A DNA stretch of 42,323 bases, taken from NCBI RefSeq assembly GCF_003334315.1, contig NZ_QOWR01000043.1. One strand, 5' to 3'. The position numbers and the translations under genes were made by a program. The notes below the pieces were generated by a model, which was given only the letters and a program-made list of their open reading frames with translations, was not told the DNA's origin and ran no database searches. How positions within the stretch are numbered: position 1 is the stretch's first letter; each line of letters opens with the position of its first letter. The DNA is from Escherichia coli. GTDB taxonomy: Bacteria; Pseudomonadota; Gammaproteobacteria; Enterobacterales; Enterobacteriaceae. Below are positions 15,843 through 42,119 of the stretch, one piece after another.

Positions 15843-15843
15843 T

Positions 15844-19519: not shown

Positions 19520-19521
19520 CA

Positions 19522-20262: not shown

Positions 20263-20280
20263 TTTTCCTCTCTTTGTAAA

Positions 20281-20319: not shown

Positions 20320-20452
20320 TTACACAAAGCATTCAAATTTTTAATGCTTTATTTGCCATTTCTCCTGAATTACGAAAACATTTGCAACACTCGATGTACC
20401 CATAACGATAACCGGTAACACCGGAAAGCATGCAAACACAACACGAGGATTT

Positions 20453-21838: not shown

Positions 21839-21890
21839 GCAGCAAAACGCACAAACCGTAACCAAACGCGCAATTTATTTAAAAAGGGAC

Positions 21891-21919
21891 TAGACAGAGG
21901 GGTGGGAAGTCCGTATTAT
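21891..21919 (+). promoter_or_regulatory. Promoter of the argX-hisR-leuT-proM tRNA operon
   Basis: tagaca (21891..21896), 17-bp spacer, tattat (21914..21919), GC-rich discriminator ccaccccc, AT-rich upstream tract; about 20 bp before argX. Confidence 0.6.
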
Positions 21920-21940
21920 CCACCCCCGCAACGGCGCTAA

Positions 21941-22017
<77 letters not shown>

Positions 22018-22074
22018 TTTAGTCCCGGCGCTTGAGCTGCGGTGGTAGTAATACCGCGTAACAAGATTTGTAGT

Positions 22075-22151
22075 GGTGGCTATAGCTCAGTTGGTAGAGC
22101 CCTGGATTGTGATTCCAGTTGTCGTGGGTTCGAATCCCATTAGCCACCCCA
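22075..22151 (+). tRNA. hisR: tRNA-His (anticodon GUG), with extra 5' G(-1)
   Basis: ggtggctatagctcagttggtagagccctggattgtgattccag...ggttcgaatcccattagccacccca. Confidence 0.95.
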
Positions 22152-22171
22152 TTATTAGAAGTTGTGACAAT

Positions 22172-22258
22172 GCGAAGGTGGCGGAATTGGTAGACGCGCT
22201 AGCTTCAGGTGTTAGTGTCCTTACGGACGTGGGGGTTCAAGTCCCCCCCCTCGCACCA
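22172..22258 (+). tRNA. leuT: tRNA-Leu (anticodon CAG), class II with long variable arm
   Basis: gcgaaggtggcggaattggtagacgcgctagcttcaggtgttag...gggggttcaagtcccccccctcgcacca. Confidence 0.95.
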
Positions 22259-22300
22259 CGACTTTAAAGAATTGAACTAAAAATTCAAAAAGCAGTATTT

Positions 22301-22377
22301 CGGCGAGTAGCGCAGCTTGGTAGCGCAACTGGTTTGGGACCAGTGGGTCGGAGGTTCGAATCCTCTCTCGCCGACCA
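22301..22377 (+). tRNA. proM: tRNA-Pro (anticodon UGG)
   Basis: cggcgagtagcgcagcttggtagcgcaactggtttgggaccag...ggttcgaatcctctctcgccgacca. Confidence 0.95.
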
Positions 22378-22385
22378 ATTTTGAA

Positions 22386-22410
22386 CCCCGCTTCGGCGGG
22401 GTTTTTTGTT
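22386..22410 (+). terminator. Rho-independent terminator of the tRNA operon
   Basis: ccccgc-ttcg-gcgggg hairpin followed by tttttt. Confidence 0.9.
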
Positions 22411-22523
22411 TTCTGTGCATTTCGTCACCCTCCCTTCGCAATAAACGCCCGTAATAACTCATTGCCCCACGGTATGATTTCGCCCTTAACGTATTGAAGG
22501 ATGACTTCAGGCAAGGAGTGACC

Positions 22524-23759
22524 ATGCTGCAACAGGTTCCAACGCGTGCTTTTCATGTGATGGCGAAACCGAGTGGTTCCGATTGTAATCTGAACTGTGA
22601 CTACTGTTTTTATCTCGAAAAACAATCCCTTTACCGCGAAAAGCCAGTCACGCATATGGACGATGACATGCTGGAAGCGTATGTCCGTCACTATATCGCT
22701 GCCAGCGAACCGCAAAACGAAGTGGCTTTTACCTGGCAGGGCGGCGAACCAACGCTACTCGGGCTGGAGTTTTACCGCCGTGCCGTAGCGCTACAGGCGA
22801 AATATGGTGCTGGCAGGAAGATAAGTAACAGCTTCCAGACTAACGGCGTGCTGCTGGATGACGAATGGTGCGCGTTTCTCGCGGAGCATCATTTTCTTGT
22901 TGGTTTATCGCTGGATGGCCCGCCTGAGATCCACAATCAATATCGCGTGACTAAAGGTGGCAGACCCACGCATAAGCTGGTGATGCGTGCCCTGACGTTC
23001 CTGCAAAAACATCATGTCGACTATAACGTGCTGGTCTGCGTTAATCGCACCAGCGCGCAGCAACCGTTGCAGGTATATGATTTTTTGTGCGATGCGGGAG
23101 TGGAATTCATCCAGTTTATTCCGGTGGTCGAGCGCCTGGCTGATGAAACGGCTGCCCGCGAAGGACTGAAATTGCATGCGCCTGGTGATATTCAGGGTGA
23201 GCTAACGGAATGGTCTGTGCGCCCCGATGAATTTGGTGAATTTCTGGTGGCGATTTTTGACCACTGGATCAAACGCGACGTCGGCAAGATTTTCGTGATG
23301 AATATCGAATGGGCGTTTGCCAATTTTGTCGGTGCGCCGGGTGCGGTTTGCCATCATCAGCCAACCTGTGGGCGCTCGGTGATTGTTGAGCACAATGGCG
23401 ACGTTTACGCCTGCGATCACTATGTTTATCCGCAATATCGGCTGGGGAATATGCACCAGCAAACAATTGCAGAAATGATCGATTCCCCGCAACAGCAGGT
23501 GTTTGGTGAAGATAAATTTAAGCAGTTACCGGCGCAGTGTCGTAGTTGTAACGTGTTAAAAGCGTGCTGGGGAGGCTGCCCGAAACACCGCTTTATGCTC
23601 GATGCCAGCGGCAAGCCTGGGCTGAATTATTTATGTGCCGGGTATCAGCGTTATTTTCGCCATCTGCCGCCGTATCTTAAAGCAATGTCTGATTTGCTGG
23701 CGCATGGCCGCCCGGCCAGCGACATTATGCATGCGCATTTGCTGGTGGTGAGTAAGTAA
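22524..23759 (+). CDS. aslB: Anaerobic sulfatase-maturating enzyme homolog AslB (radical SAM), 411 aa
   Basis: ORF 22494..23759; start MLQQVPTRAF at ATG 22524 with aggag RBS; CxxxCxxC motif CNLNCDYC plus C-terminal Cys clusters. Confidence 0.92.
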   Translation: MLQQVPTRAFHVMAKPSGSDCNLNCDYCFYLEKQSLYREKPVTHMDDDMLEAYVRHYIAASEPQNEVAFTWQGGEPTLLGLEFYRRAVALQAKYGAGRKISNSFQTNGVLLDDEWCAFLAEHHFLVGLSLDGPPEIHNQYRVTKGGRPTHKLVMRALTFLQKHHVDYNVLVCVNRTSAQQPLQVYDFLCDAGVEFIQFIPVVERLADETAAREGLKLHAPGDIQGELTEWSVRPDEFGEFLVAIFDHWIKRDVGKIFVMNIEWAFANFVGAPGAVCHHQPTCGRSVIVEHNGDVYACDHYVYPQYRLGNMHQQTIAEMIDSPQQQVFGEDKFKQLPAQCRSCNVLKACWGGCPKHRFMLDASGKPGLNYLCAGYQRYFRHLPPYLKAMSDLLAHGRPASDIMHAHLLVVSK

Positions 23760-23769
23760 AAAAGCGGCC

Positions 23770-23920
<151 letters not shown>

Positions 23921-23926
23921 GCCGGC

Positions 23927-25582
23927 TTAGTCAGATTTAATCTGCGCGCGTGGTGGATATTTTTTCAGGATCTCCATATACGCGTGCATTTCGGTCTGTA
24001 GCGGTACACCCATCGGAATATGGCGCACGCCGATGGAGTCGCTTTCCTGCGGATCGGTGTAGAGGTTAAACACCGACGATCCCGCCGTTTGCATTACTGT
24101 GCCGGTGAATCCACCCTGATATCCGCTCTGGGTATAAGCGTAAGGTTGCTGAATCAGGACGTGATACTTGAACTCATCCATACGCACAGCAGCGAGTTTA
24201 CCGTTGAGGAAGTAGTGCTCGGCCTTACGGTTAGACTGACCATTTGTTCCCAGGAAGAAGGATGTCTGGTCCACACCATCGATAAAGGTGGTTTTCGGCA
24301 CTAAATTCGCCACTTTCGCTCCAGGATGCCCTGCCAGATCCAGCGCGGTAGGGAAGAGATCTGCCAGATCGACAATACCGTCAGATTTACGCGGTTGGAT
24401 CATCCCTTTCCAGTAAACGAAAGTCGGTACGCGAACGCCGCCTTCCCAGGTCGAACCTTTCGCACCACGGAACGGGGTGCGTCCGTGCGGCGGTACTTCG
24501 GCTTCCGGTCCGTTATCGGAGGTAAAGACGATCAGCGTGTTATCAAGCTGACCGTTTTTCTCCAGTGTTTTATACAGATTAGCGAACACATCGTTCATCT
24601 CCACCATGCAGTCGCCATACGAGGTGCGTGCCGGAGAGCTACCCGCATATTTAGCGTTCGGGTAGTTATCGAAGTGACAGCCGCGAGTGCCGTAATAGAG
24701 GAAGAAAGGCTTATCGCTCTTCGCCATCTTGTCGAGGAACTTAACGCCATATTCCATCCAGCGTTGATCCAGATCTTCCATATATTTCGGCGTAATGTCG
24801 GCAATGGCCTGTTGTTCGCCGCCGCGCACTGCATGAACATCATCTTTGCTGAACGGTAATTGCTTGATGTATTCAGAATGGTCCGGACTCAGGGCCACTT
24901 CCGGATTGACGTGAACGTCGCGCCATTCGGTGTACATATCAGACACCGAGTTAAAGCCACGGAAATCATCAAAGCCAACGTTCTGCGGCTGCGACTCTTT
25001 GTTTTCCCCCATATGCCATTTCCCGATAGCCTGGGTGACGTAACCTTGGTCGTGCAGCAATTGCGGCAGGGTGGTTAACCCTTGCAGACCTCCCGGTTGC
25101 CCGTACATTGGCGGCATCAGAATGCCGTGGTGGATGGAGTATTGTCCGGTGAGAATGGTGGCGCGGGTTGGGGAAGAGCTTGGTTGAGAATACGCCGACG
25201 TTAAAATCAGCCCCTGGCTGGCAACTGCATCGATATCTGGTGTAGGGTTACCCACCGCCACGCCGCCACCGTTAAAACCGACGTCCATCCAGCCCACATC
25301 GTCCAGCAGGAAGATAACCACATTGGGCTTCTTACCGGTTTTTTTCTCAAGTTCTGCCAGCTTCTGCTGGGTTTCTTTATCCTGCGCCGGATGCTGCATT
25401 ACTGGCATCATGTTGTCGGCAATAGTGGTCGCCGGTTTAACCAGATACTGGTTTGGGTGATCGTATCCGGCAAAGCCTTTGCGTGCGGTGGCAGTTGACG
25501 GGGTATCTGCTGCGCTGGCCATGAGAGGAAGAGCGGCGGCGACAGCAACAACAAGACGTTTGGGTGAAAACGAAATTTCCAT
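23927..25582 (-). CDS. aslA: Arylsulfatase-like protein AslA, 551 aa, with N-terminal signal peptide
   Basis: ORF 23927..25582 minus; sulfatase signature S-x-P-x-R ([11 protein letters not shown]); hydrophobic signal sequence ending ASAADTP. Confidence 0.93.
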
Positions 25583-26006
25583 GCAAAATGCTCCGGTTTC
25601 ATGTCATCAAAATGATGACGTAATTAAGCATTGATAATTGAGATCCCTCTCCCTGACAGGATGATTACATAAATAATAGTGACAAAAATAAATTATTTAT
25701 TTATCCAGAAAATGAATTGGAAAATCAGGAGAGCGTTTTCAATCCTACCTCTGGCGCAGTTGATATGTAAGGCAGGTTTATTATATCGCGTTGATTATTG
25801 ATGCTGTTTTTAGTTTTAACGGCAATTAATATATGTGTTATTAATTGAATGAATTTTATCATTCATAATAAGTATGTGTAGGATCAAGCTCAGGTTAAAT
25901 ATTCACTCAGGAAGTTATTACTCAGGAAGCAAAGAGGATTACAGAATTATCTCATAACAAGTGTTAAGGGATGTTATTTCCCGATTCTCTGTGGCATAAT
26001 AAACGA

Positions 26007-26203
26007 GTAGATGCTCATTCCATCTCTTATGTTCGCCTTAGTGCCTCATAAACTCCGGAATGACGCAGAGCCGTTTACGGTGCTTATCGTCCACTGACAG
26101 ATGTCGCTTATGCCTCATCAGACACCATGGACACAACGTTGAGTGAAGCACCCACTTGTTGTCATACAGACCTGTTTTAACGCCTGCTCCGTAATAAGAG
26201 CAG
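26007..26203 (+). ncRNA. glmZ: Small regulatory RNA GlmZ (activator of glmS translation); ends approximate
   Basis: ORF-free stretch beginning gtagatgctcattccatctcttatgttcgcc, preceded by a cataat -10 (25995..26000) and ending in terminator gcctgctccgtaataagagcaggc + T7; matches the GlmZ sequence as I recall it, in the aslA-hemY intergenic region. Confidence 0.8.
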
Positions 26204-26260
26204 GCGTTTTTTTATGTGTCAGGAAGGCCCCGGAGGTGCTTGCCCCCGGGTGAGAAGGAA

Positions 26261-27457
26261 CTACTGTGGTGGGTTGTTCTGCAACGTTAACATCAAACCG
26301 TCGTGACGCATCGCTGCAGCTTCTTCCGGCTTGTGCAGTCTGTCCAGCGCGTCGGCAAGCCATGCGTAATCGTAGGCGTCCGGACGTTGTTTCAGCGCTG
26401 CGCGGAAGGCGAGCGATGCTTCCTGCCATTCTCCGTGCTTCATCAGTGACTGGCCCAGTGTGCTCCACAACAGCGGGCGATCGCCGACGTTTTTGATCTG
26501 CTGGCGCAGCACTTTTTCCAGCTGTTCCGGATTGTTGGTTTTCAGTCGAGGAATCGGCAGCAGTAGGCGATCGTCATACTGGCGTTTCAGGCCGTCGATG
26601 ATAATTTGCTGGGCAGTATCATGATCGTCACATTCAATAAGATGTTCCGCCATTGCCACCTGCAACGCTACCTGATGACGCGTTTTCCGGCTTTGGTTTT
26701 TCCACCAGTTACGCAAGCCTTCGCTACCGTTATCGGCACGCGCCTGATCCATCAGGCCAATCCATGCCTGTTGTTCCAGCATTGCACGATGTTCTTCATC
26801 GCCAACGTGGGCTTTCGCCATTGATGGGATGATATCCAGCAGCGAACTCCATGCACCAGTGCGGATATACGCCTGTTCCGCCAGACGTAATACTTCCGGA
26901 TGGCGTGGCGTAACTTCCAGCAGCTTATCCACGCCGTGGCGTGCAGCATGGTTTTCATTACGGGCCAGTTGCAGACGTACACGGGTGATTTCTACCGGAA
27001 TTGTGTCGTTGCCGGCCAGCTCCGCTGCGCGTTCCAGATGTTGGTTGGCGCGTGCTTCATCACCGCGTTGTTGCGCGGCTTCGGCAGCCAGCAGATAGTT
27101 CACCACCGGTTGTTCAGCGTGATCGGCATTTTTCGCCATCAGCTTTTCAACTTGCTGATAATCGCCTTCCGCTAGTTTCAGCAGCGCCTGTTCGGTCTGC
27201 TTACGGGCACGGCGACGCTTACGTCCGACAAACCACCCACGGGTGTGTGCGCCTGTGCGGAAGATCCGCCGCAGTAGCCACTCAATGGCAAACAGCACTA
27301 CCATCGCCAGAATCAAAATAATCGCCAGGCCAGTGACGCTGGTTTCGATATTGTAGTTGTCGGTCTGAATCAATACGTACCCCTGATGACCGGCAATCAT
27401 CGGGCCAACCACGATCCCCGCAATCAGCAAAACAAAGAGCAATAGCACTTTTAGCAT
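26261..27457 (-). CDS. hemY: HemY protein (TPR-containing inner membrane protein), 398 aa
   Basis: ORF 26261..27457 minus; N-terminal TM segments; last gene of hemCDXY. Confidence 0.93.
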   Translation of the reverse strand: MLKVLLLFVLLIAGIVVGPMIAGHQGYVLIQTDNYNIETSVTGLAIILILAMVVLFAIEWLLRRIFRTGAHTRGWFVGRKRRRARKQTEQALLKLAEGDYQQVEKLMAKNADHAEQPVVNYLLAAEAAQQRGDEARANQHLERAAELAGNDTIPVEITRVRLQLARNENHAARHGVDKLLEVTPRHPEVLRLAEQAYIRTGAWSSLLDIIPSMAKAHVGDEEHRAMLEQQAWIGLMDQARADNGSEGLRNWWKNQSRKTRHQVALQVAMAEHLIECDDHDTAQQIIIDGLKRQYDDRLLLPIPRLKTNNPEQLEKVLRQQIKNVGDRPLLWSTLGQSLMKHGEWQEASLAFRAALKQRPDAYDYAWLADALDRLHKPEEAAAMRHDGLMLTLQNNPPQ

Positions 27458-27459
27458 GG

Positions 27460-28641
27460 TTATTCTCCTTGCGGCGCGGCTGCCGGAGTATCAGCTTGCG
27501 GTGCAGGTGCAGGTTTAGCTTCCGTTGCCCCTGCTGTCGGTTGTGCCAGCAGGTTACGCACGCGAGTCTGCATCAGTTTTTCCAGCATCGCCTGGCTTTG
27601 CAGGGTTTCCGGAAGATCCATCGAGATATTTTGCTGGCTTAACTGGTCCACCTCGTCGAGGAACGCTTTGGTGGTGGCATCATCAGTATCGTAGTAAGCA
27701 CGTACCCAGGTGGAGACGTTCTCCAGCGCCTGGCGATAAGTCTCTTCCTGGTGACGCGGTACAGCTTGTGCTGCGACCAGCAGGCGAGAGCGAATATTTT
27801 CGCGCAGATAGATATCCTGATTTGGCGCTAACAGCGGTACGGCGGTGTCATCACGACGGCGAATCGTAATGAAGTTGTCCATAAAGTTCTGCCAGCTTTT
27901 TTGCAGATTGATACGCCATTCGCTGATGGAACTGGAAAGCTCTTCACCGTCTGAATCCATCGGCGAACCATCGCTGTCATTATCGGCCAGACGCAGGTTA
28001 TCTACCTGATTTGAAAGCTGATTAAGCTTAAGGATGATGCCGTCATAATCCACCTGCGATACTGCAGAAAGGCTGGCGATATCATCGGTAATTGCCCGAC
28101 GAACGGTAATCAGACTCGGGTCATTCATATCCGCCAGGCTGGCGTCTGCACTTTTCAGCAACGCTGCAGCGGTCGTGACGTCCTGATCGCTCCACAGCTT
28201 CCGTCCGGCGAGTTTCACCAGAAAATCGGCCTGAGCCAGCAGCCAGGTTTTAGCATCGCTGCCGGAAATGGTGGCGACCTTTTGTTGGACCTCATCCAAC
28301 TGTTTTGCCAGCGTTTCTTGCTGACGATTCGCCTGCTTAAGCTGTGCAGCTTGTTGCTTAATAATGCCTTCCAGCTCGGCTTTTTGGCTCTCCTGGGCTT
28401 TTTGCAATGCCGTCAGTTGGTTAGCCAGGGCATCGCTGGTGGCGGTCTGATTGACGGCCTGTTGTTTACCCCAGCCATACAAACCGACGCCCGCCGCCAG
28501 AGCAATAGCGATAGCCACCGCGCTGAGAATCAATGCGGTATTGTTCTTACTCTTTTTTTCTGTTGCGACAGGTTGTGACGTGGTGTCCACGGCCTCCCTG
28601 GTCTCTTCAACCACGGCGGAGGTTTTTTCTTGTTCCGTCAT
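27460..28641 (-). CDS. hemX: HemX protein (membrane protein with coiled-coil/Ala-Gln-rich region), 393 aa
   Basis: ORF 27460..28641 minus; low-complexity AQ-rich central region; hem operon context. Confidence 0.93.
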
Positions 28642-28662
28642 TATGGCTTCCTGTTATGAGAG

Positions 28663-29403
28663 TTATTGTAATGCCCGTAAAAGCGCATCGTTGTCAGCGT
28701 TATCGGCGACCTTAATGTCTTGCCAGCCCAGTTCCCGGGCGAGTTTCGCCAAACGCTCACTGACGACCAATAGTCGACAGTGTAGTAACCAGTGCTCACG
28801 ATACCATTGTGGGATCAGCGACCAGAGTTGCTGCAACATTTCACCGCTGGTAACAACGACCGTCGTCACCTCGCGGGATTGCCAGCGCATCGCTTCTTCT
28901 GCACCATCGTAATGGATTGCGCATCGTTGATAACATTCACAAAAAGTGACCTCAGCACCGCGCGCCGTCAGGGTATCCCCAATTAGCTCACGACCACCAT
29001 TGCCACGTAATATCAGCGCACGTTTGCCCGCAATATTTTGTAATTCAGGTAATTGTAGCAAGACTTCGCTGATTTCCCGATCCTGCGGGTAGAGAATCTT
29101 CTGTCCGCTTACGGTATGTAGTGCCAGTGCGGTGGTGCGTCCAATGGCGAAATAATCAGGTAGTCGGGGCCATTTACGATCTTGCTGATGCAGCTGTGAT
29201 TGGGCAAAAGCAACCGCGTGTTGCGAGAGGGCAAACAACAGATCGCTCTCCCCCAGCGCTGCCAGTTGATCAGCAAGTTGCGGTAATTGTTGACCCGGAG
29301 AAAACTCAATCAGCGGAAAATGCCAGGCCACCTGCCCCAGTGTGCGCAGACGGCTCACTAACTCTTCTCCAGCGGGAGACGGGCGGGTGACAAGGATACT
29401 CAT
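28663..29403 (-). CDS. hemD: Uroporphyrinogen-III synthase HemD, 246 aa
   Basis: ORF 28663..29403 minus; start overlaps hemC stop. Confidence 0.93.
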
Positions 29404-30341
29404 GCCGGGGCGTCTCCGTTATAGACTTCAGCGAGGATCTCGCGCGCGCCGTTATTCAGTAGCTCTTCTGCCAGCGAAATCCCCATTTGTTCGGCATCTT
29501 GCGGCGCACCGCGGCGTTCACCGCGAATAATCTGCGAACCGTCCGGCGCGCCGACCAGCGCACGCAGCCAGATTTCGCCATCAATAAGCTCGGCGTAGCT
29601 ACCAATTGGCACCTGACATCCGCCTTCGAGACGGGTATTCATGGCGCGTTCTGCGGTAACGCGCAGTGCAGTTTCGTGGTGATTCAGCGCGGCAAGCAGC
29701 TCGCGAGTGCGTGAATCATCAAGGCGGCATTCAATACCCACCGCACCTTGTCCTACCGCCGGAAGAGAAATCTCGGGTGGCAACGCGGCGCGAATACGTG
29801 ACTCCAGACCTAAACGTTTTAGTCCGGCTACGGCAAGAATGATGGCATCGTATTCGCCGTTATCCAGTTTGCTCAGGCGAGTGCCGACGTTGCCGCGCAG
29901 GGAGCGGATAATCAGATCCGGACGGCGTTCAGCCAGTTGGCACTGGCGACGTAAACTGGACGTCCCGACGATACTGCCTGCCGGTAACGCATCCAGACTG
30001 TCATAGTTATTGGACACAAAGGCATCGCGAGGATCTTCACGCTCACAAATAGTGACCAGTCCCAGACCTTGCGGGAATTCAACCGGCACATCTTTCATTG
30101 AGTGTACGGCGATATCGGCGCGATTTTCGAGGAGCGCGACTTCCAGCTCTTTTACAAATAAGCCTTTTCCGCCTACTTTCGCCAGCGGCGTATCAAGAAT
30201 CACATCGCCGCGCGTCACCATCGGTACCAGTTCAACGACCAGGCCCGGATGGCTCGCCATCAACTTGTCTTTGACATAGTGTGCCTGCCAGAGTGCAAGT
30301 GGGCTTTGGCGTGTGGCAATTCTTAAAACATTGTCTAACAT
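29400..30341 (-). CDS. hemC: Porphobilinogen deaminase (hydroxymethylbilane synthase) HemC, 313 aa
   Basis: ORF 29400..30362 minus; recognised start [20 protein letters not shown] at the internal ATG (minus-strand codon at 30339..30341). Confidence 0.93.
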
Positions 30342-30727
30342 GCTTGTTACCGTCATTATCATCCGTGGTCCATCCTAACATCCTTGCCAGAGTGATGTCA
30401 GTGTTGTGGTGAAACGTAGACGCCTGCGCAAACCGTAAAATGAGGTCTGGCAGTGGATCCTGACAGGCGTTTCACGCCGTTGTAATAAGGAATTTACAGA
30501 GAATAAACGGTGCTACACTTGTATGTAGCGCATCTTTCTTTACGGTCAATCAGCAAGGTGTTAAATTGATCACGTTTTAGACCATTTTTTCGTCGTGAAA
30601 CTAAAAAAACCAGGCGCGAAAAGTGGTAACGGTTACCTTTGACATACGAAATATCCCGAATGCCGCGTGTTACCGTTGATGTTGGCGGAATCACAGTCAT
30701 GACGGGTAGCAAATCAGGCGATACGTC

Positions 30728-33274
30728 TTGTACCTCTATATTGAGACTCTGAAACAGAGACTGGATGCCATAAATCAATTGCGTGTGGATCGCGCGCTTG
30801 CTGCTATGGGGCCTGCATTCCAACAGGTCTACAGTCTACTGCCGACATTGTTGCACTATCACCATCCGCTAATGCCGGGTTACCTTGATGGTAACGTTCC
30901 CAAAGGCATTTGCCTTTACACGCCTGATGAAACTCAACGCCACTACCTGAACGAGCTTGAACTGTATCGTGGAATGTCAGTACAGGATCCGCCGAAAGGT
31001 GAGCTTCCAATTACTGGTGTATACACCATGGGCAGCACCTCGTCCGTAGGGCAAAGTTGTTCCTCTGACCTGGATATCTGGGTCTGTCATCAATCCTGGC
31101 TCGATAGCGAAGAGCGCCAATTGCTACAACGTAAATGTAGCCTGCTGGAAAACTGGGCCGCCTCGCTGGGTGTGGAAGTCAGCTTCTTCCTGATTGATGA
31201 AAACCGCTTCCGTCATAATGAAAGCGGCAGCCTGGGGGGCGAAGATTGTGGCTCCACCCAGCATATACTGCTGCTTGACGAATTTTATCGTACCGCCGTG
31301 CGTCTCGCCGGTAAGCGTATTCTGTGGAATATGGTGCCGTGCGACGAAGAAGAGCATTACGACGACTATGTGATGACGCTTTACGCGCAGGGCGTGCTGA
31401 CGCCAAATGAATGGCTGGATCTCGGTGGCTTAAGCTCGCTTTCTGCTGAAGAGTACTTTGGTGCCAGCCTTTGGCAGCTCTACAAGAGTATCGATTCCCC
31501 ATACAAAGCGGTACTGAAAACACTGCTGCTGGAAGCCTATTCCTGGGAATACCCGAACCCACGTCTGCTGGCGAAAGATATCAAACAGCGTTTGCACGAC
31601 GGCGAGATTGTATCGTTTGGTCTCGATCCATACTGCATGATGCTGGAGCGTGTTACTGAATACCTGACGGCGATTGAAGATTTTACCCGTCTGGATTTAG
31701 TACGTCGCTGCTTCTATTTAAAAGTGTGCGAAAAGCTCAGCCGTGAACGCGCCTGCGTAGGCTGGCGTCGCGCAGTGTTGAGCCAGTTAGTGAGCGAGTG
31801 GGGTTGGGACGAAGCTCGTCTGGCAATGCTCGATAACCGCGCTAACTGGAAGATTGATCAGGTGCGTGAGGCGCACAACGAGTTGCTCGACGCGATGATG
31901 CAGAGCTACCGTAATCTGATCCGCTTTGCGCGTCGCAATAACCTTAGCGTCTCCGCCAGTCCGCAGGATATCGGCGTGCTGACGCGTAAGCTGTATGCCG
32001 CGTTTGAAGCATTACCAGGTAAAGTGACGCTGGTAAACCCGCAGATTTCACCCGATCTCTCGGAACCGAATCTGACCTTTATTTGTGTGCCGCCGGGCCG
32101 GGCTAACCGTTCAGGTTGGTATCTGTATAACCGCGCGCCAAATATTGAGTCGATCATCAGCCATCAGCCGCTGGAATATAACCGTTACCTGAATAAACTG
32201 GTGGCGTGGGCATGGTTTAACGGCCTGCTGACCTCGCGCACCCGTTTGTATATTAAAGGTAACGGCATTGTCGATTTGCCTAAGTTGCAGGAGATGGTCG
32301 CCGACGTGTCGCACCATTTCCCGCTGCGCTTACCTGCACCGACACCGAAGGCGCTCTACAGCCCGTGTGAGATCCGCCATCTGGCGATTATCGTTAACCT
32401 GGAATATGACCCGACAGCGGCGTTCCGCAATCAGGTGGTGCATTTCGATTTCCGTAAGCTGGATGTCTTCAGCTTTGGCGAGAATCAAAATTGCCTGGTA
32501 GGTAGCGTTGACCTGCTGTACCGCAACTCGTGGAACGAAGTGCGTACGCTGCACTTCAACGGCGAGCAATCGATGATCGAAGCCCTGAAAACTATTCTCG
32601 GCAAAATGCATCAGGACGCCGCACCGCCAGATAGCGTGGAAGTCTTCTGTTATAGCCAGCATCTGCGCGGCTTAATTCGTACTCGCGTGCAGCAACTGGT
32701 TTCTGAGTGTATTGAATTGCGTCTTTCCAGCACCCGCCAGGAAACCGGGCGTTTCAAGGCGCTGCGCGTTTCTGGTCAAACCTGGGGGTTGTTCTTCGAA
32801 CGCCTGAATGTATCGGTACAGAAACTGGAAAACGCCATCGAGTTTTATGGCGCGATTTCGCATAACAAACTGCACGGCCTGTCAGTGCAGGTTGAAACCA
32901 ATCACGTCAAATTACCGGCGGTGGTGGACGGCTTTGCCAGCGAAGGGATCATCCAGTTCTTTTTCGAAGAAACGCAAGACGAGAATGGCTTTAATATCTA
33001 CATTCTCGACGAAAGCAACCGGGTTGAGGTATATCACCACTGCGAAGGCAGCAAAGAGGAGCTGGTACGTGACGTCAGTCGCTTCTACTCGTCATCGCAT
33101 GACCGTTTTACCTACGGCTCAAGCTTCATCAACTTCAACCTGCCGCAGTTCTATCAGATTGTGAAGGTTGATGGTCGTGAACAGGTGATTCCGTTCCGCA
33201 CAAAATCTATCGGTAACATGCCGCCTGCCAATCAGGATCACGATACGCCGCTATTACAGCAATATTTTTCGTGA
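30728..33274 (+). CDS. cyaA: Adenylate cyclase (class I) CyaA, 848 aa, TTG start codon
   Basis: ORF 30728..33274 begins at ttg; N-terminus [32 protein letters not shown] recognised; divergent from hemC. Confidence 0.95.
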
Positions 33275-33313
33275 TGAACGTGCCGGAAAGCGAGGCTTAT
33301 CCGGCATGCAATC

Positions 33314-33634
33314 TTAGCGGAAACTGACTGTTTCACCCGCCTGCTGCGTCGCCGCCTGTTCCAGCAAATCCCAGAAGGTTTCGCCGCTGCGATCACAAAT
33401 CCACTCATCGCCTTTCAGGTCAAAATGGTAGCCGCCCTGTTTGGTTGCCAGCCATACCTGGTGCAGCGGCTCCTGGCGGTTGATAATGATTTTGCTGCCA
33501 TTCTCAAAGGTAATGGTCAGTACGCCGCCGTTGATTTCGCAGTCGATATCGCTGTCGCCATCCCAGTCGTCCAGGCGTTCTTCAATGGTCAGCCAGAGTT
33601 GATCAGCCAGGCGATGAAATTCACTGTCGTTCAT
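33314..33634 (-). CDS. cyaY: Frataxin homolog CyaY (iron-sulfur cluster assembly), 106 aa
   Basis: ORF 33314..33634 minus; [33 protein letters not shown] acidic ridge typical of frataxin. Confidence 0.95.
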
Positions 33635-34096
33635 TGTTGTATCCTGTTTTTAAGTGATGGCGGCAGTATAGCGGCATGGGGTCAGGGCTTCAAAGTTTGC
33701 ACCTCTGCGGCTGCGTTCCGGCACGATTCATCCGTCACCGGAATAATGATGTCTCTGTGTAGCGAAAGATTTGTCTCTTCATTAGGGCGCAGTTACACCA
33801 CGTCTTTCCCTGTTTCTGGTAAACATTATGATCAGGTTTACCGAGCGAGCATCCTCACGCTGACGGAACTAAAAAAGACAACAAACAAACCACATTGCGA
33901 TAGTGCATAAAGCCATCCTGGCGCGAGGTGCCGATCACGAAACTACCAGCAAAACATAAATCCCCACGAGTAAGCGTTATACTCGCAGCATTTCCTCACT
34001 TTTCAGACTTCATAAAGAGTCGCTAAACGCTTGCTTTTACGTCTTCTCCTGCGATGATAGAAAGCAGAAAGCGATGAACTTTACAGGCAATCCATA

Positions 34097-34300
34097 ATGA
34101 AAAACGTGTTTAAGGCACTCACTGTATTACTTACTCTCTTCAGCCTGACGGGCTGCGGTCTGAAAGGTCCGCTCTATTTCCCGCCTGCAGATAAAAACGC
34201 ACCGCCGCCGACCAAACCGGTAGAGACGCAAACGCAATCCACGGTGCCGGATAAAAACGATCGCGCCACTGGCGATGGTCCATCCCAGGTGAATTACTAA
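34097..34300 (+). CDS. yifL: Small predicted lipoprotein YifL, 67 aa
   Basis: ORF 34097..34300; lipobox LTGC after a signal peptide; Pro-rich low-complexity tail. Confidence 0.85.
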   Translation: MKNVFKALTVLLTLFSLTGCGLKGPLYFPPADKNAPPPTKPVETQTQSTVPDKNDRATGDGPSQVNY

Positions 34301-34336
34301 AAGTCAGTTTCTGTACCCGCGTGATTGGAGTAAATG

Positions 34337-35161
34337 ATGCAGTTCTCGAAAATGCATGGCCTTGGCAACGATTTTATGGTCGTCGACGCGGTAACGCAGA
34401 ATGTCTTTTTTTCACCGGAGCTGATTCGTCGCCTGGCTGATCGGCACCTGGGGGTAGGGTTTGACCAACTGCTGGTGGTTGAGCCGCCGTATGATCCTGA
34501 ACTGGATTTTCACTATCGCATTTTCAATGCTGATGGCAGTGAAGTGGCGCAGTGCGGCAACGGTGCGCGCTGCTTTGCCCGTTTTGTGCGTCTGAAAGGA
34601 CTGACCAATAAGCGTGATATCCGCGTCAGCACCGCCAACGGGCGGATGGTTCTGACCGTCACCGATGATGATCTGGTCCGCGTAAATATGGGCGAACCCA
34701 ACTTCGAACCTTCCGCCGTGCCGTTTCGCGCTAACAAAGCGGAAAAGACCTATATTATGCGCGCCGCCGAGCAGACAATCTTATGCGGCGTGGTGTCGAT
34801 GGGAAATCCGCATTGCGTGATTCAGGTCGATGATGTCGATACCGCGGCGGTAGAAACGCTTGGTCCTGTTCTGGAAAGCCACGAGCGTTTTCCGGAGCGC
34901 GCCAATATCGGTTTTATGCAAGTGGTTAAGCGCGAGCATATTCGTTTACGCGTTTATGAGCGTGGGGCAGGAGAAACCCAGGCCTGCGGCAGCGGCGCGT
35001 GTGCGGCGGTTGCAGTAGGGATTCAGCAAGGTTTGCTGGCCGAAGAAGTACGCGTGGAACTCCCCGGCGGTCGTCTTGATATCGCCTGGAAAGGTCCGGG
35101 TCACCCGTTATATATGACTGGCCCGGCGGTACATGTCTACGACGGATTTATTCATCTATGA
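34337..35161 (+). CDS. dapF: Diaminopimelate epimerase DapF, 274 aa
   Basis: ORF 34334..35161; recognised start [17 protein letters not shown] at ATG 34337; catalytic Cys motifs (GNGARC, CGSGAC). Confidence 0.95.
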
Positions 35162-35865
35162 AGCAACCAGGGGAAGAACTGCAGGAAACACTCACGGAGC
35201 TTGATGACCGGGCGGTTGTCGATTATCTGATTAAAAATCCTGAGTTTTTTATCCGTAATGCGCGCGCAGTAGAAGCGATACGTGTGCCGCATCCGGTACG
35301 CGGCACCGTTTCGTTGGTCGAGTGGCACATGGCCCGCGCACGTAATCATATTCATGTTCTGGAAGAGAACATGGCGCTGTTGATGGAACAGGCTATCGCC
35401 AACGAAGGCCTGTTTTATCGCCTACTCTACCTGCAGCGCAGTCTCACCGCCGCCAGCAGTCTCGACGATATGCTGATGCGCTTTCACCGCTGGGCGCGCG
35501 ATCTCGGCCTGGCAGGTGCGAGTCTGCGCCTGTTTCCGGATCGCTGGCGCTTAGGTGCGCCGTCGAACCACACTCATCTGGCATTAAGCCGTCAGTCTTT
35601 CGAACCGCTGCGTATTCAGCGTTTGGGGCAGGAACAGCACTATCTTGGGCCGCTTAACGGACCAGAGCTGCTGGTGGTGCTACCGGAAGCGAAAGCGGTG
35701 GGATCGGTGGCGATGTCGATGCTGGGAAGCGATGCTGATTTGGGTGTCGTGCTGTTTACCAGTCGCGATGCCAGTCACTATCAACAAGGGCAAGGAACGC
35801 AGTTACTTCATGAAATTGCGCTGATGTTGCCGGAGCTTCTGGAGCGTTGGATTGAACGCGTATGA
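35158..35865 (+). CDS. yigA: DUF484-family protein YigA, 235 aa
   Basis: ORF 35158..35865; start overlaps dapF stop; conserved dapF-yigA-xerC-yigB arrangement. Confidence 0.9.
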
Positions 35866-36758
35866 CCGATTTACACACCGATGTAGAACGCTACCTACGT
35901 TATCTGAGCGTGGAGCGCCAGCTTAGCCCGATAACCCTGCTTAACTACCAGCGTCAGCTTGAGGCGATCATCAATTTTGCCAGCGAAAACGGCCTGCAAA
36001 GCTGGCAGCAATGTGATGTGACGATGGTGCGCAATTTTGCTGTACGCAGTCGCCGTAAAGGGCTGGGAGCAGCAAGTCTGGCGTTACGGCTTTCTGCGCT
36101 ACGTAGCTTTTTTGACTGGCTGGTCAGCCAGAACGAACTCAAAGCTAACCCGGCGAAAGGTGTTTCGGCACCGAAAGCGCCGCGTCATCTGCCGAAAAAC
36201 ATCGACGTCGACGATATGAATCGGCTGCTGGATATTGATATCAATGATCCCCTCGCTGTACGCGACCGTGCAATGCTGGAAGTGATGTACGGCGCGGGTC
36301 TGCGTCTTTCTGAGCTGGTGGGGCTGGATATTAAACACCTCGACCTGGAGTCTGGTGAAGTGTGGGTTATGGGGAAAGGCAGCAAAGAGCGCCGCCTGCC
36401 GATTGGTCGCAACGCTGTGGCGTGGATTGAGCACTGGCTTGATTTGCGCGACCTGTTTGGTAGCGAAGACGACGCGCTTTTTCTGTCGAAACTGGGCAAG
36501 CGTATCTCCGCGCGTAATGTGCAGAAACGCTTTGCCGAATGGGGCATAAAACAAGGGCTGAATAATCACGTTCATCCGCATAAATTACGTCACTCGTTCG
36601 CCACGCATATGCTGGAGTCGAGCGGCGATCTTCGTGGTGTGCAGGAGCTGCTGGGTCATGCCAACCTCTCCACCACGCAAATCTATACTCATCTTGATTT
36701 TCAACACCTTGCCTCGGTGTACGATGCGGCGCATCCACGCGCCAAACGGGGGAAATAA
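35862..36758 (+). CDS. xerC: Tyrosine site-specific recombinase XerC (chromosome dimer resolution), 298 aa
   Basis: ORF 35862..36758; conserved catalytic residues (R...HxxR...Y) near C-terminus: [10 protein letters not shown]...[14 protein letters not shown]. Confidence 0.95.
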
Positions 36759-37474
36759 TGCGTTTTTACCGGCCTTTGGGGCGCATCTCGGCGCTCACCT
36801 TTGACCTGGATGATACCCTTTACGATAACCGTCCGGTGATTTTGCGCACCGAGCGAGAGGCGCTTACCTTTGTGCAAAATTATCATCCGGCGCTGCGCAG
36901 CTTCCAGAATGAAGATCTGCAACGCCTGCGCCAGGCGGTACGGGAAGCGGAACCCGAGATTTATCACGACGTGACGCGCTGGCGTTTTCGTTCGATTGAA
37001 CAAGCGATGCTCGACGCCGGGCTGAGTGCCGAAGAAGCCAGTGCAGGCGCACACGCAGCAATGATCAACTTTGCCAAATGGCGCAGCCGAATCGACGTCC
37101 CGCAGCAAACTCACGACACCTTAAAACAGCTGGCGAAGAAATGGCCGCTGGTGGCGATCACCAACGGTAACGCCCAGCCGGAGCTGTTTGGTTTGGGGGA
37201 TTATTTTGAGTTTGTGCTGCGCGCTGGCCCGCACGGGCGCTCAAAACCGTTCAGCGATATGTACTTTTTGGCTGCGGAAAAACTCAACGTGCCGATCGGC
37301 GAGATCTTACATGTTGGGGACGATCTCACCACTGACGTGGGTGGGGCAATTCGCAGCGGAATGCAGGCTTGTTGGATCAGACCGGAAAATGGCGATCTGA
37401 TGCAAACCTGGGACAGCCGTTTACTGCCGCATCTGGAAATTTCCCGGTTGGCATCTCTGACCTCGCTGATATAA
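36758..37474 (+). CDS. yigB: HAD-superfamily phosphatase YigB (5-amino-6-(5-phospho-D-ribitylamino)uracil/FMN phosphatase), 238 aa
   Basis: ORF 36758..37474; HAD motif I DLDDTLYD near N-terminus. Confidence 0.9.
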
Positions 37475-37483
37475 TCAGCAAAT

Positions 37484-37499
37484 CTGTATATATACCCAG
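37484..37499. promoter_or_regulatory. LexA (SOS) box upstream of uvrD
   Basis: ctgtatatatacccag fits CTGT-N8-ACAG with one mismatch in the right arm, 58 bp upstream of the uvrD ATG. Confidence 0.75.
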
Positions 37500-37557
37500 C
37501 TTTTTGGCGGAGGGCGTTGCGCTTCTCCGCCCAACCTATTTTTACGCGGCGGTGCCA

Positions 37558-39720
37558 ATGGACGTTTCTTACCTGCTCGACAGCCTTAATGACAAACAGC
37601 GCGAAGCGGTGGCCGCGCCACGCAGCAACCTTCTGGTGCTGGCGGGCGCGGGCAGTGGTAAGACGCGCGTACTGGTGCATCGTATCGCCTGGTTGATGAG
37701 CGTGGAAAACTGCTCGCCATACTCGATTATGGCGGTGACGTTTACCAACAAAGCGGCGGCGGAGATGCGTCATCGTATCGGGCAACTGATGGGCACGAGC
37801 CAGGGCGGTATGTGGGTCGGCACCTTCCACGGGCTGGCGCACCGTTTGTTGCGTGCGCACCATATGGACGCCAATCTGCCGCAGGATTTCCAGATCCTCG
37901 ACAGTGAAGACCAGCTACGCCTGCTTAAGCGTCTGATCAAAGCCATGAACCTCGACGAGAAGCAGTGGCCGCCGCGGCAGGCAATGTGGTACATCAACAG
38001 CCAGAAAGATGAAGGCCTGCGTCCGCATCATATTCAAAGCTACGGTAATCCGGTGGAGCAGACCTGGCAGAAGGTGTATCAGGCGTATCAGGAAGCGTGT
38101 GACCGCGCGGGCCTGGTGGACTTCGCCGAGCTGCTGCTGCGCGCTCACGAGTTGTGGCTTAACAAGCCGCATATCCTGCAACACTACCGCGAACGTTTTA
38201 CCAATATCCTGGTGGACGAATTCCAGGATACCAACAACATTCAGTACGCGTGGATCCGCCTGCTGGCGGGCGACACCGGCAAAGTGATGATCGTCGGTGA
38301 TGACGACCAGTCAATCTACGGCTGGCGCGGGGCGCAGGTGGAGAATATTCAGCGTTTCCTTAATGATTTCCCCGGTGCCGAAACTATTCGTCTGGAGCAA
38401 AACTACCGCTCTACCAGCAATATTCTGAGCGCCGCTAACGCCCTGATTGAAAACAATAACGGGCGTCTGGGTAAAAAACTGTGGACCGATGGCGCGGACG
38501 GTGAGCCTATTTCCCTCTATTGCGCTTTTAACGAACTCGATGAAGCGCGTTTTGTGGTTAACCGCATCAAAACCTGGCAGGACAACGGCGGAGCGCTTGC
38601 CGAGTGCGCCATTCTCTACCGCAGCAACGCCCAGTCGCGGGTGCTCGAAGAGGCGTTATTGCAGGCCAGTATGCCGTACCGTATTTACGGCGGGATGCGC
38701 TTCTTCGAACGCCAGGAAATCAAAGATGCGCTCTCGTATCTGCGCCTGATTGCCAACCGCAACGACGACGCGGCCTTTGAGCGTGTGGTGAATACGCCAA
38801 CGCGGGGTATTGGTGACCGGACGCTGGACGTGGTACGTCAGACATCGCGCGATCGCCAGTTAACACTCTGGCAGGCATGTCGTGAGCTGTTGCAGGAAAA
38901 AGCCCTCGCCGGGCGAGCTGCCAGCGCCTTGCAGCGATTTATGGAATTAATCGACGCCTTAGCGCAGGAAACTGCCGATATGCCGCTGCATGTACAGACT
39001 GACCGGGTAATTAAAGACTCCGGCCTGCGTACCATGTATGAGCAGGAGAAGGGCGAAAAAGGTCAGACGCGTATCGAAAACTTAGAGGAACTGGTGACGG
39101 CAACGCGCCAGTTCAGCTACAACGAAGAAGACGAAGATTTAATGCCGCTGCAGGCGTTCCTCTCCCATGCGGCACTGGAAGCAGGTGAAGGGCAGGCGGA
39201 TACCTGGCAGGATGCGGTGCAGTTGATGACGCTACACTCGGCGAAAGGCCTGGAGTTCCCGCAGGTGTTTATCGTTGGTATGGAAGAGGGCATGTTCCCA
39301 AGCCAGATGTCGCTGGATGAAGGCGGGCGTCTGGAAGAAGAACGCCGTCTGGCCTACGTTGGCGTAACCCGCGCGATGCAGAAACTGACGCTGACCTACG
39401 CGGAAACCCGCCGTCTGTATGGTAAAGAGGTTTACCATCGCCCGTCGCGCTTTATCGGCGAGCTGCCGGAAGAGTGTGTGGAAGAGGTGCGCCTGCGCGC
39501 CACGGTAAGCCGCCCGGTCAGCCATCAGCGGATGGGTACGCCGATGGTCGAGAACGACAGCGGCTACAAGCTCGGCCAGCGCGTACGCCACGCTAAGTTT
39601 GGTGAAGGCACCATTGTCAATATGGAAGGCAGCGGTGAGCATAGCCGTTTGCAGGTGGCATTTCAGGGCCAGGGTATTAAATGGCTGGTGGCGGCATACG
39701 CCCGGCTGGAGTCGGTGTAA
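37558..39720 (+). CDS. uvrD: DNA helicase II UvrD (SF1 helicase; nucleotide excision and mismatch repair), 720 aa
   Basis: ORF 37369..39720; recognised start MDVSYLLDSLNDKQREAVAAP at ATG 37558; Walker A GAGSGKT; upstream in-frame extension overlaps yigB and the LexA box. Confidence 0.95.
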   Translation: MDVSYLLDSLNDKQREAVAAPRSNLLVLAGAGSGKTRVLVHRIAWLMSVENCSPYSIMAVTFTNKAAAEMRHRIGQLMGTSQGGMWVGTFHGLAHRLLRAHHMDANLPQDFQILDSEDQLRLLKRLIKAMNLDEKQWPPRQAMWYINSQKDEGLRPHHIQSYGNPVEQTWQKVYQAYQEACDRAGLVDFAELLLRAHELWLNKPHILQHYRERFTNILVDEFQDTNNIQYAWIRLLAGDTGKVMIVGDDDQSIYGWRGAQVENIQRFLNDFPGAETIRLEQNYRSTSNILSAANALIENNNGRLGKKLWTDGADGEPISLYCAFNELDEARFVVNRIKTWQDNGGALAECAILYRSNAQSRVLEEALLQASMPYRIYGGMRFFERQEIKDALSYLRLIANRNDDAAFERVVNTPTRGIGDRTLDVVRQTSRDRQLTLWQACRELLQEKALAGRAASALQRFMELIDALAQETADMPLHVQTDRVIKDSGLRTMYEQEKGEKGQTRIENLEELVTATRQFSYNEEDEDLMPLQAFLSHAALEAGEGQADTWQDAVQLMTLHSAKGLEFPQVFIVGMEEGMFPSQMSLDEGGRLEEERRLAYVGVTRAMQKLTLTYAETRRLYGKEVYHRPSRFIGELPEECVEEVRLRATVSRPVSHQRMGTPMVENDSGYKLGQRVRHAKFGEGTIVNMEGSGEHSRLQVAFQGQGIKWLVAAYARLESV

Positions 39721-39866
39721 CGTTGCCGGATGCGGTGCTGCGCACCTTATTTGGCCTAAAAAATCATTCAGATTCAATAAATTGCAACGTCATGTAGGCC
39801 GGATAGGGCGTTTACGCCGCATCCGGCATCTGCGCCATCTTCAGTATCTGACACAAAACTATCGTT
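39721..39866. repeat. BIME/REP cluster between convergent uvrD and yigE
   Basis: Palindromic units gttgccggatgcggtgctgcgcacc... and tgtaggccggatagggcgtttacgccgcatccggca with the same attcaataaattgca linker seen at 23841..23855. Confidence 0.8.
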
Positions 39867-40631
39867 TTAACCTTTCCGCTCGACGGAAATCATGGTGACA
39901 AAAGGATAGCGTTGCCACGGGATTGCCCCGCCTTTCATATACATATGTGAAATCGTGCCATCAAGATAAAGCAGCTGCTCAACGTTCAGTTTCGCTTTGG
40001 CATAACAGGCAAAATCATAAAAATTTGTCGCCTGCTGGCTCAACAAAAACACGGCATTCCCATGTTTATTAATCCCAACACCGTTACGAATTTTACGTGA
40101 GGCGACGTTGGGATGAATACGCGGATTAATTACACTGTTTTCCATCAACATTGGCCCTGACTGCACCGCAAACTGAATCTCTTTACTGGTTTTGAAGGCA
40201 TCCAGACGAACGATGCCGACTTTATCTCCCGCGACATAAAACACGCCGCCAGGACGGATAAAGAAATTCCCTTCACCTGAAGCGAGATTTAACGCCACCT
40301 TCTGCTGACCGTTTTCGATGTACAAACCGAGCGGCGCATAGCTTTCATCATAGATGCCGCCGTTCATCGCCATCTGCACCTGACCCTGACTATTCATATC
40401 CGCCAGCAGAGCATGTAACGTTCCCCACGCTTCGCCATTGGCTTTTTGCCAGTACATTTTCACCCGCTCTGTTTGAGGATTAACGGTATACGCCTGTACG
40501 GTCAGCGTCGGATCTGAGAGTGCGCAATCATCAGCGGCAACAGCAAACAAGGGAAGTAAGGTGAGGGCGAGAAAAATCCGTTTGAGATTCAAGGTGATCA
40601 TTCCTTTACCAATGAGTAGCCGATGCGCCAT
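39867..40631 (-). CDS. yigE: DUF2233-family secreted protein YigE, 254 aa
   Basis: ORF 39867..40631 minus; N-terminal signal peptide LALTLLPLFAVAADD. Confidence 0.88.
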   Translation of the reverse strand: MAHRLLIGKGMITLNLKRIFLALTLLPLFAVAADDCALSDPTLTVQAYTVNPQTERVKMYWQKANGEAWGTLHALLADMNSQGQVQMAMNGGIYDESYAPLGLYIENGQQKVALNLASGEGNFFIRPGGVFYVAGDKVGIVRLDAFKTSKEIQFAVQSGPMLMENSVINPRIHPNVASRKIRNGVGINKHGNAVFLLSQQATNFYDFACYAKAKLNVEQLLYLDGTISHMYMKGGAIPWQRYPFVTMISVERKG

Positions 40632-41000
40632 TATAGGTCCTGGATGTGGGATTTTTTTATCCTGTTAGCGACCTTGACGAGTACCAAAAAGCGCGAAGTT
40701 CAACTATTGTTCTGTGGTGTTCTGTTGCGTGTTGACGGCAAAATTTTGCTGGCGTAACATGCGCGCACGATCACTCTAAGAGGACATTCGCCTTGGACAC
40801 ACCCAGTAGATACTGGCTCACTATCCTGTCATCCAGGATCAACTCCTAAGGCTATCCCTTTTTGCTGATAGCCTTAGCGGTTGTCAGCGACCTCAATTTT
40901 TCCCGTCGCGCTGAGTCAGGCTGTTTAATGGTCTGAAACCCAATTTGTTTCTGTGTGCCCACCGAACTGTCCGATATTTTAAGCATTGGGAGTCCCGGTC

Positions 41001-41951
41001 ATGCTGAGCGCATTTCAACTGGAAAATAACCGACTGACCCGGCTGGAAGTCGAAGAGTCACAACCCCTTGTAAATGCAGTATGGATTGATCTTGTCGAAC
41101 CGGACGACGACGAGCGACTGCGCGTACAATCTGAACTTGGTCAGAGCCTGGCAACCCGCCCGGAACTGGAAGACATCGAAGCATCGGCACGTTTCTTTGA
41201 AGACGACGACGGCCTGCATATTCACTCCTTCTTCTTCTTTGAAGATGCGGAAGATCACGCCGGTAACTCCACTGTGGCATTTACCATCCGTGATGGTCGT
41301 CTGTTTACTCTGCGTGAGCGTGAACTGCCCGCTTTTCGTCTGTATCGTATGCGTGCCCGTAGCCAGTCGATGGTGGACGGTAACGCCTACGAGCTGCTGC
41401 TGGATCTGTTCGAAACCAAAATCGAACAGTTGGCAGATGAAATTGAAAATATCTATAGCGACCTGGAGCAGTTGAGCCGGGTGATTATGGAAGGGCATCA
41501 GGGCGATGAGTACGACGAGGCGCTCTCCACTCTGGCGGAACTGGAAGATATCGGCTGGAAAGTGCGCCTGTGTCTGATGGATACCCAGCGTGCGCTCAAC
41601 TTCCTGGTGCGTAAAGCGCGTTTACCGGGTGGGCAACTGGAGCAGGCGCGTGAAATCCTGCGAGATATCGAATCCCTGCTGCCGCATAACGAATCCCTGT
41701 TCCAGAAGGTGAACTTCCTGATGCAGGCGGCAATGGGTTTTATCAACATCGAGCAGAACCGCATCATCAAAATCTTCTCGGTGGTATCCGTGGTATTCCT
41801 GCCGCCGACGCTCGTTGCTTCCAGCTATGGCATGAACTTTGAGTTTATGCCAGAACTGAAGTGGAGCTTCGGCTACCCTGGCGCGATTATCTTTATGATC
41901 CTCGCGGGCCTGGCACCGTATCTGTACTTTAAGCGGAAGAACTGGTTGTAA
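41001..41951 (+). CDS. corA: Magnesium/cobalt transport protein CorA, 316 aa
   Basis: ORF 40986..41951; recognised start [20 protein letters not shown] at ATG 41001; signature GMNF motif ([11 protein letters not shown]) before C-terminal TM helices. Confidence 0.95.
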
Positions 41952-41962
41952 AAAACGAGAGC

Positions 41963-41987
41963 GGTGGCTTAGTCTGGCTAAGCCACC
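41963..41987. terminator. Bidirectional terminator hairpin between corA and the convergent minus-strand gene
   Basis: ggtggcttag-tctgg-ctaagccacc perfect 10-bp stem; A-run upstream (U-run for the minus-strand transcript) and weak T-rich tract downstream. Confidence 0.6.
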
Positions 41988-41993
41988 TGTTAT

Positions 41994-42119
41994 TCAAAGG
42001 CTCCAGGTATTTAACCCTTTTACCTCTTTCTCATAGAACCATTTGTTCGTGTTAACAGCAACATAGGCTGCTACGGCAATTCCCAGAATGTTAACGCCAA
42101 TTAGTGCACCAACAAATAG
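41994..42119 (-). pseudogene. 3' fragment of a small membrane-protein gene truncated by IS1
   Basis: Minus-strand frame reads ...LFVGALIGVNILGIAVAAYVAVNTNKWFYEKEVKGLNTWSL* (stop at 41994..41996); open frame runs uninterrupted into the first base of IS1 at 42120; in K-12 gene order the gene convergent with corA is yigF, but I cannot confirm the protein identity. Confidence 0.5.

Follow-up and report, generated by a model that had tools for sequence, protein, structure and literature searches.

The hemC-cyaA region of Escherichia coli very probably limits the output of adenylate cyclase at two levels, through feedback by CRP on the cyaA promoter and through weak translation from a UUG start codon. 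The region is the long-studied adenylate cyclase control region of this organism, and what we describe is textbook biology that is already known. Here, we present the evidence for both brakes in a window of 42,323 nucleotides (the whole stretch of DNA that was analysed), together with a comparison of 77 species sequences that gives a clean footprint of the bases that matter. The coordinates of the features are collected in Table 1.

Across 42 kb, the window and E. coli K-12 share 99.43% identity (230 mismatches, 3 gaps), and the window therefore comes from an E. coli strain other than K-12. Positions 30100..31000 are 100% identical to K-12 MG1655, and this stretch was found in all 5426 of the 5426 complete E. 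coli genomes. The identity, together with the annotated synteny (hemYXDC, with cyaA divergent and cyaY downstream), places the sequence as the E. coli hemC-cyaA locus, in which hemC is the first gene of hemCDXY. An earlier note on this DNA had named the two genes and a divergent gap of 386 bp between them, and the RefSeq starts of hemC (30341) and cyaA (30728) bear it out; all of the coordinates that it gave are exact to the base. The longest open reading frame of hemC reaches an upstream ATG at 30362 (320 aa), and that ATG is not kept in other genera.

The comparison draws on 80 cyaA loci from the Enterobacteriaceae, with one genome per species, including Escherichia, Citrobacter, Salmonella, Klebsiella, Enterobacter, Kosakonia, Cedecea and Atlantibacter. 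The start codon was scored in the 79 of these that include the start. The gap between hemC and cyaA measures 283-409 bp in 78 Enterobacteriaceae loci, and 77 unique intergenic regions, also 283-409 bp long, were aligned with MAFFT. In this alignment, positions 30532..30581 are nearly invariant, and positions 30402..30480 and 30655..30712 diverge freely or, in some genera, are deleted.

Table 1. Features of the hemC-cyaA locus, in window coordinates
Feature	Coordinates	Strand	Description and basis
hemC CDS	29400..30341	-	Hydroxymethylbilane synthase, 313 aa; RefSeq annotation of the identical K-12 stretch
hemC-cyaA divergent intergenic region	30342..30727		386 bp
Predicted hemC promoter	30372..30401	-	-35 CTGACA (30401..30396), 18-bp spacer, TG, -10 TAGGAT (30377..30372); consensus scan
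Conserved upstream block of cyaA	30482..30535	+	Holds GTA..GGAATTTACA; imperfect palindrome GCTACA-CTTGTA-TGTAGC at 30512..30529; upstream of the cyaA promoter
Predicted main cyaA promoter (P2-type)	30539..30567	+	-35 TTTACG (30539..30544), 17-bp spacer, extended TG (30559..30560), -10 TAAATT (30562..30567)
Predicted CRP-cAMP site AGGTGTTAAATTGATCACGTTT	30556..30577		Core TGTTA-N6-TCACG; centre near -7.5 relative to the predicted start
Predicted cyaA 5' leader	30574..30727	+	About 154 nt; alignment, start predicted
Translation-initiation region ATCAGGCGATACGTC	30713..30727	+	Conserved; 3-nt Shine-Dalgarno match AGG (30716..30718), 9 nt before the start
cyaA initiation codon TTG	30728..30730	+	First possible start after the in-frame stop; RefSeq start
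cyaA CDS	30728..33274	+	Class I adenylate cyclase, 848 aa; RefSeq annotation and open reading frame listing, TTG start

The elements of the predicted main cyaA promoter are strongly conserved. The -35 hexamer is identical in 76 of the 77 aligned intergenic regions and the TG in all 77, while the -10 hexamer reads TAAATT in 58 of them and TAGATT in the other 19. The nine bases after the -10 (30568..30576) are identical throughout (77/77). The promoter sequence predicts a transcription start near 30574; its exact position, and hence the geometry of occlusion discussed below, is what we infer from those letters. Our consensus promoter scanner missed this promoter because it has 8/12 hexamer matches, below the cut-off of 9/12, and the promoter was read directly from the sequence. 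A TTGACA at 30639..30644 was considered as a further promoter and rejected: it has no -10 at a usable distance and is conserved only in Escherichia, Citrobacter and Salmonella. On the opposite strand, the scanner finds the predicted hemC promoter, whose -10 and TG are identical in 77 of 77 sequences and whose -35 reads TGTCAG, TGTTAG or TGGCAG on the plus strand. From its sequence, we infer that it functions as the promoter of hemC.

The earlier note had also pointed to a sequence in the gap that resembles a pair of CRP half-sites, the 17-mer gtgttaaattgatcacg, which does lie at 30558..30574, and it had proposed a weight-matrix scan with an above-threshold score as the test. The core has 2 mismatches in 10 positions (in the left half-site, TGTTA, a T replaces the important G), and a bare core match is not rare: core-type matches with up to 3 mismatches number 102 in the window, against 140 expected. 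Our CRP weight matrix is symmetric, spans 22 bp and was built from 17 classic benchmark fragments with the cya fragment left out; the matrix is to be read as a lead rather than as a curated resource. Trained in this way without the cya site, it gives the 22-mer at 30556..30577 a score of 12.05 bits, which ranks first among the 42,302 window positions and passes the proposed test. By chance, about 0.012 sites this good are expected in the hemC-cyaA gap. The score lies at the low end of the 11.3-18.7 bits spanned by all but one of the training sites, and thus within the accepted range. In the orthologous regions the 22-mer occurs in two variants (58 and 19 of 77) that differ at spacer position 30564, both scoring about 12 bits. 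This conservation is confounded by overlap with the promoter: the 22-mer takes in the conserved TG, TAAATT and the predicted start, so that conservation of the site is inseparable from conservation of the promoter.

The predicted site is of medium strength, and the poor left half of this asymmetric sequence suggests moderate affinity and thus occupancy only at high cAMP-CRP. Two other matches in the gap were rejected. The first, TGTTGGCGGAATCACA at 30680..30695, scores only 5.3 bits and lies in sequence that is unalignable between genera, and the other, at 30619..30640 and overlapping the palindrome GGTAACGGTTACC, is too weak at 6.1 bits. We take 30556..30577 to be the classic 'cya' CRP site, known from Aiba 1985 and included in the Stormo-Hartzell benchmark set; the 105-bp 'cya' fragment of the benchmark matches window positions 30507..30611 exactly. 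In 1985, Aiba reportedly described a CRP footprint at this cya site.

Centred near -7.5 of the predicted start and lying over the -10 and that start point, the predicted CRP site would be placed to repress by occlusion. At high cAMP, CRP-cAMP would occupy 30556..30577, over the -10 and the start point, where it would block RNA polymerase and lower the transcription of cyaA; a cyaA promoter blocked in this way would provide negative feedback on cAMP synthesis. On the other side of the gap, hemC would be transcribed in the opposite direction from its own conserved promoter, some 170-200 bp away. Inada et al. reportedly found in 1996 that CRP has a modest repressive effect on cya transcription, most of the CRP-dependent lowering of cAMP being exerted on enzyme activity. 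Repression of cyaA by Crp has been described in E. coli, with reference to Aiba 1985, and likewise in Yersinia pestis (PMC3950509), and expression of a P_cyaA-gfp fusion is higher in a crp deletion (bioRxiv 10.1101/2024.06.10.598332).

The second brake concerns the start codon. The first codon of cyaA is TTG in all 79 Enterobacteriaceae loci that could be scored. In the window, an in-frame stop (TAG, 30707..30709) is found 21 nt upstream of the TTG, and the interval holds no further start codon; in 38 of the 79 loci, too, the upstream stop and the TTG enclose no other in-frame start. The codons that follow are under selection at the protein level: variable sites in codons 2-16 fall 2, 0 and 8 times at codon positions 1, 2 and 3, and 66 of 68 unique sequences agree in all of residues 1-27 of CyaA. 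This third-position bias and the invariant residues mean that these codons are translated, which excludes a start at the downstream ATG (codon 27). The proposal of the earlier note that cyaA starts at the TTG at 30728 is thus upheld, and downstream ATG initiation, the observation that the note itself had named as its refutation, is excluded by the variation in codons 2-16.

The translation-initiation region ahead of the TTG is also conserved, with five variants of 30713..30727 in 77 sequences and a C/T exchange at 30724 as the sole common change. No anti-Shine-Dalgarno complement of at least 4 nt precedes the cyaA TTG, where we find AGG only. This weak ribosome-binding region and the UUG, at the end of a leader of about 154 nt, would keep the synthesis of CyaA low. 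Expression of cyaA with UUG, GUG and AUG as initiators has been reported to stand in the ratio 1:2:6 (PMC5499595, citing Reddy et al. 1985), which supports the view, taken in the earlier note, that the TTG limits cyaA translation. According to the same source (PMC5499595), the UUG of cyaA is conserved across Enterobacterales and other gammaproteobacteria, in agreement with the TTG seen here in 79 of 79 loci.

The leader itself was considered as a structured element, whether a riboswitch, a thermometer or a known cis-regulatory RNA, and this reading was rejected. The predicted folds of the cyaA leader and of the initiation region are no more stable than those of shuffled sequence (z = -1.15 and -0.96), no Rfam family matches within the hemC-cyaA gap, and in several genera the central part of the leader (about 30650..30712) varies or has been deleted.

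Upstream of the cyaA promoter lies a further conserved block, 30482..30535, with mostly 70-100% column identity in the 77 sequences and variable columns at 30485, 30487 and 30499-30505. The substitutions in the arms of its imperfect palindrome are not compensatory, which argues against a hairpin in RNA or DNA, and we rejected a hairpin or terminator reading. The block is possibly the minor upstream cya promoter of the 1980s papers, a protein-binding site or an UP-like element. A DnaA scan, which had been suggested in the earlier note alongside the CRP scan, gave no box: within 30342..30727, there is no match to TTWTNCACA with at most 1 mismatch. Across the window, there are 68 DnaA-box matches, against 65.7 by chance.

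Two rival readings were weighed. The CRP-like sequence could be conserved merely as the -10 and start region, with CRP inactive there and the effect of Crp on cyaA indirect. That the site falls on the TG, the -10 and the predicted start is in keeping with this, since conservation cannot discriminate between the two, and so are the commonness of core matches with 2 mismatches and the score of 12 bits, which is low in the range of the training sites. On the other hand, the site is the best matrix match in 42 kb, in a gap where only about 0.012 such matches are expected, and the right half-site with its flank, GATCACGTTTT, which lies downstream of the -10, is invariant as well. In addition, repression by Crp is reported, and Aiba 1985 is cited for direct negative control (PMC3950509; bioRxiv 10.1101/2024.06.10.598332). 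We consider it very unlikely that the sequence serves the promoter only. In the second reading, translation would begin elsewhere, at the ATG of codon 27 or at the TTG or GTG codons 18 and 20, with the TTG at 30728 an annotation artefact. In its favour, genes usually start at ATG, the Shine-Dalgarno match ahead of the TTG amounts to AGG, and codons 18, 20 and 27 do offer in-frame candidates, but the near-identity of residues 1-27 (66/68), with changes concentrated at third positions (2/0/8), speaks against a start at these codons, as do the TTG in 79 of 79 loci and the E. coli stop 21 nt upstream without an earlier start. Mutagenesis of the UUG, moreover, alters expression in the ratio 1:2:6 (PMC5499595). 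The probability that translation starts at any of these other codons is, in our judgement, negligible.

A different kind of reading adds to the two brakes rather than replacing either of them: besides CRP, a further regulator may act via 30482..30535, for instance TyrR, by which cAMP synthesis would be coupled to aromatic amino acids. The block is conserved, and the sequence TGTAAT-AAGGAA-TTTACA (30481..30498) is the sole match in the window with at most 1 mismatch to TGTAAA-N6-TTTACA. The activity of the cyaA promoter has also been reported to be best explained by cAMP and L-phenylalanine (PMC5293157). However, the match was found post hoc, its left half TGTAAT is present in only 2 of the 77 sequences, most of which read CGTATT, although the right half TTTACA is kept in 63 of 77, and a minor upstream promoter or an UP-like element would account for the block just as well. 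We consider such a further input, through TyrR or otherwise, improbable. That a regulator hitherto unconnected with cyaA uses the block as its operator, with TyrR as one candidate in Escherichia, is likewise a long shot.

Feedback of CRP on cyaA resembles the autoregulation of crp and other CRP-repressed promoters, in that CRP-cAMP represses a gene of the very pathway through which it signals and so exerts negative feedback. At crp, repression is indirect, via a CRP-activated divergent transcript, whereas the cyaA site sits on the core promoter and fits simple occlusion. The other comparisons concern the cya locus itself. The E. coli cya P2 promoter and its overlapping CRP operator (Aiba 1985) come from the same organism and the same locus, and the window is identical to K-12 across the region. 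The UUG initiation of cyaA (Roy, Haziza and Danchin 1983; Reddy, Peterkofsky and McKenney 1985) concerns the same TTG codon, with no difference. The cya control region of Salmonella typhimurium (Thorner, Fandl and Artz 1990) is also alike: in our sample, the locus from S. enterica subsp. arizonae (L017) has an identical -35, TG, -10, CRP site and TTG, whereas sequence and length are different in the leader and upstream of 30480.

Both brakes, CRP feedback and the weak UUG start, have been in the literature since the 1980s, and their confirmation here adds nothing new. An operator in 30482..30535, if it is real, would give cAMP synthesis a second input. Enteric bacteria use cAMP-CRP as their master signal of carbon status, and the hemC-cyaA region matters as the place where the cell's amount of adenylate cyclase is set.

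The divergent hemC-cyaA intergenic region spans 386 bp. RefSeq places the hemC start at 30341, giving a protein of 313 aa, and a mechanical ORF call extends to an ATG at 30362 (320 aa). In our alignment of intergenic regions from Enterobacteriaceae, the ATG at 30362 is absent from most other genera, and a second in-frame ATG, at 30356, is missing in several. The 12 nt directly 5' of the annotated hemC ATG (30342..30353, GCTTGTTACCGT) are 100% identical in all 77 unique sequences, which is unusually strong given that the hemC leader has no clear Shine-Dalgarno sequence. Within this stretch, and adjoining the hemC start, lies one copy of the 9-mer TGTTACCGT (30345..30353); the other copy in the intergenic region is found in the cyaA leader (30668..30676), and this duplication could be due to chance. 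The cyaA leader also contains the palindrome GGTAACGGTTACC (30625..30637), whose conservation is partial.

At the other end of the region, a C/T difference at 30724 is the sole common polymorphism among the 15 nt 5' of the cyaA TTG. A possible small hairpin, AGGCG-AUA-(C/U)GUCU (30719..30731), pairs AGG with the bases just before the UUG and with its first U. The polymorphism would preserve this hairpin by exchanging a G-C for a G-U pair; with its very short stem, the hairpin lies in a region that folds no better than shuffled sequences.

Upstream of the predicted cyaA promoter, the sequence TGTAAT-AAGGAA-TTTACA (30481..30498) differs at a single position from the TyrR box consensus (TGTAAA-N6-TTTACA); nowhere else in the 42-kb window does a sequence come this close. 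Its right half is kept in 63 of the 77 sequences and its left half in two, both from Escherichia. Nearby lies the imperfect palindrome GCTACA-CTTGTA-TGTAGC, which received a terminator-like call on both strands in a consensus scan. We considered reading it as a hairpin and rejected this, as changes in one arm are not matched by compensating changes in the other; the palindrome therefore resembles an element for protein binding or promoter function.

The strain is an E. coli other than K-12. Positions 76..42119 of the window align to K-12 MG1655 with 99.43% identity (230 mismatches and 3 gaps), and the two ends (1..75 and 42120..42323) have no alignment to the K-12 span. The palindrome is listed below together with features found elsewhere in the window, among them a match to our CRP matrix (a 22-bp weight matrix made from classic benchmark fragments, not a curated resource) in the interval separating the tRNA cluster from aslB, ~100 bp 5' of where aslB starts.

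Coordinates of the cyaA-upstream palindrome and of other features in the window
Feature	Position	Strand	Details
trxA 5' UTR RNA thermometer match	5257..5356	+	Rfam RF02773, 78.8 bits; upstream of trxA
Four-tRNA gene cluster	21941..22374	+	Arg, His, Leu, Pro (K-12 annotation)
Candidate CRP site TTCTGTGCATTTCGTCACCCTC	22411..22432		CRP matrix, 9.2 bits; fourth-best in the window
GlmZ (SraJ) small RNA, full-length	26007..26213	+	Rfam RF00083, 218 bits; flanked by hemY and aslA
Imperfect palindrome	30512..30529		conserved; ~50 bp 5' of the predicted cyaA transcription start
DKNYY-family protein gene, frameshifted fragment (pseudogene)	about 33760..33938		RefSeq; between cyaY and lptM
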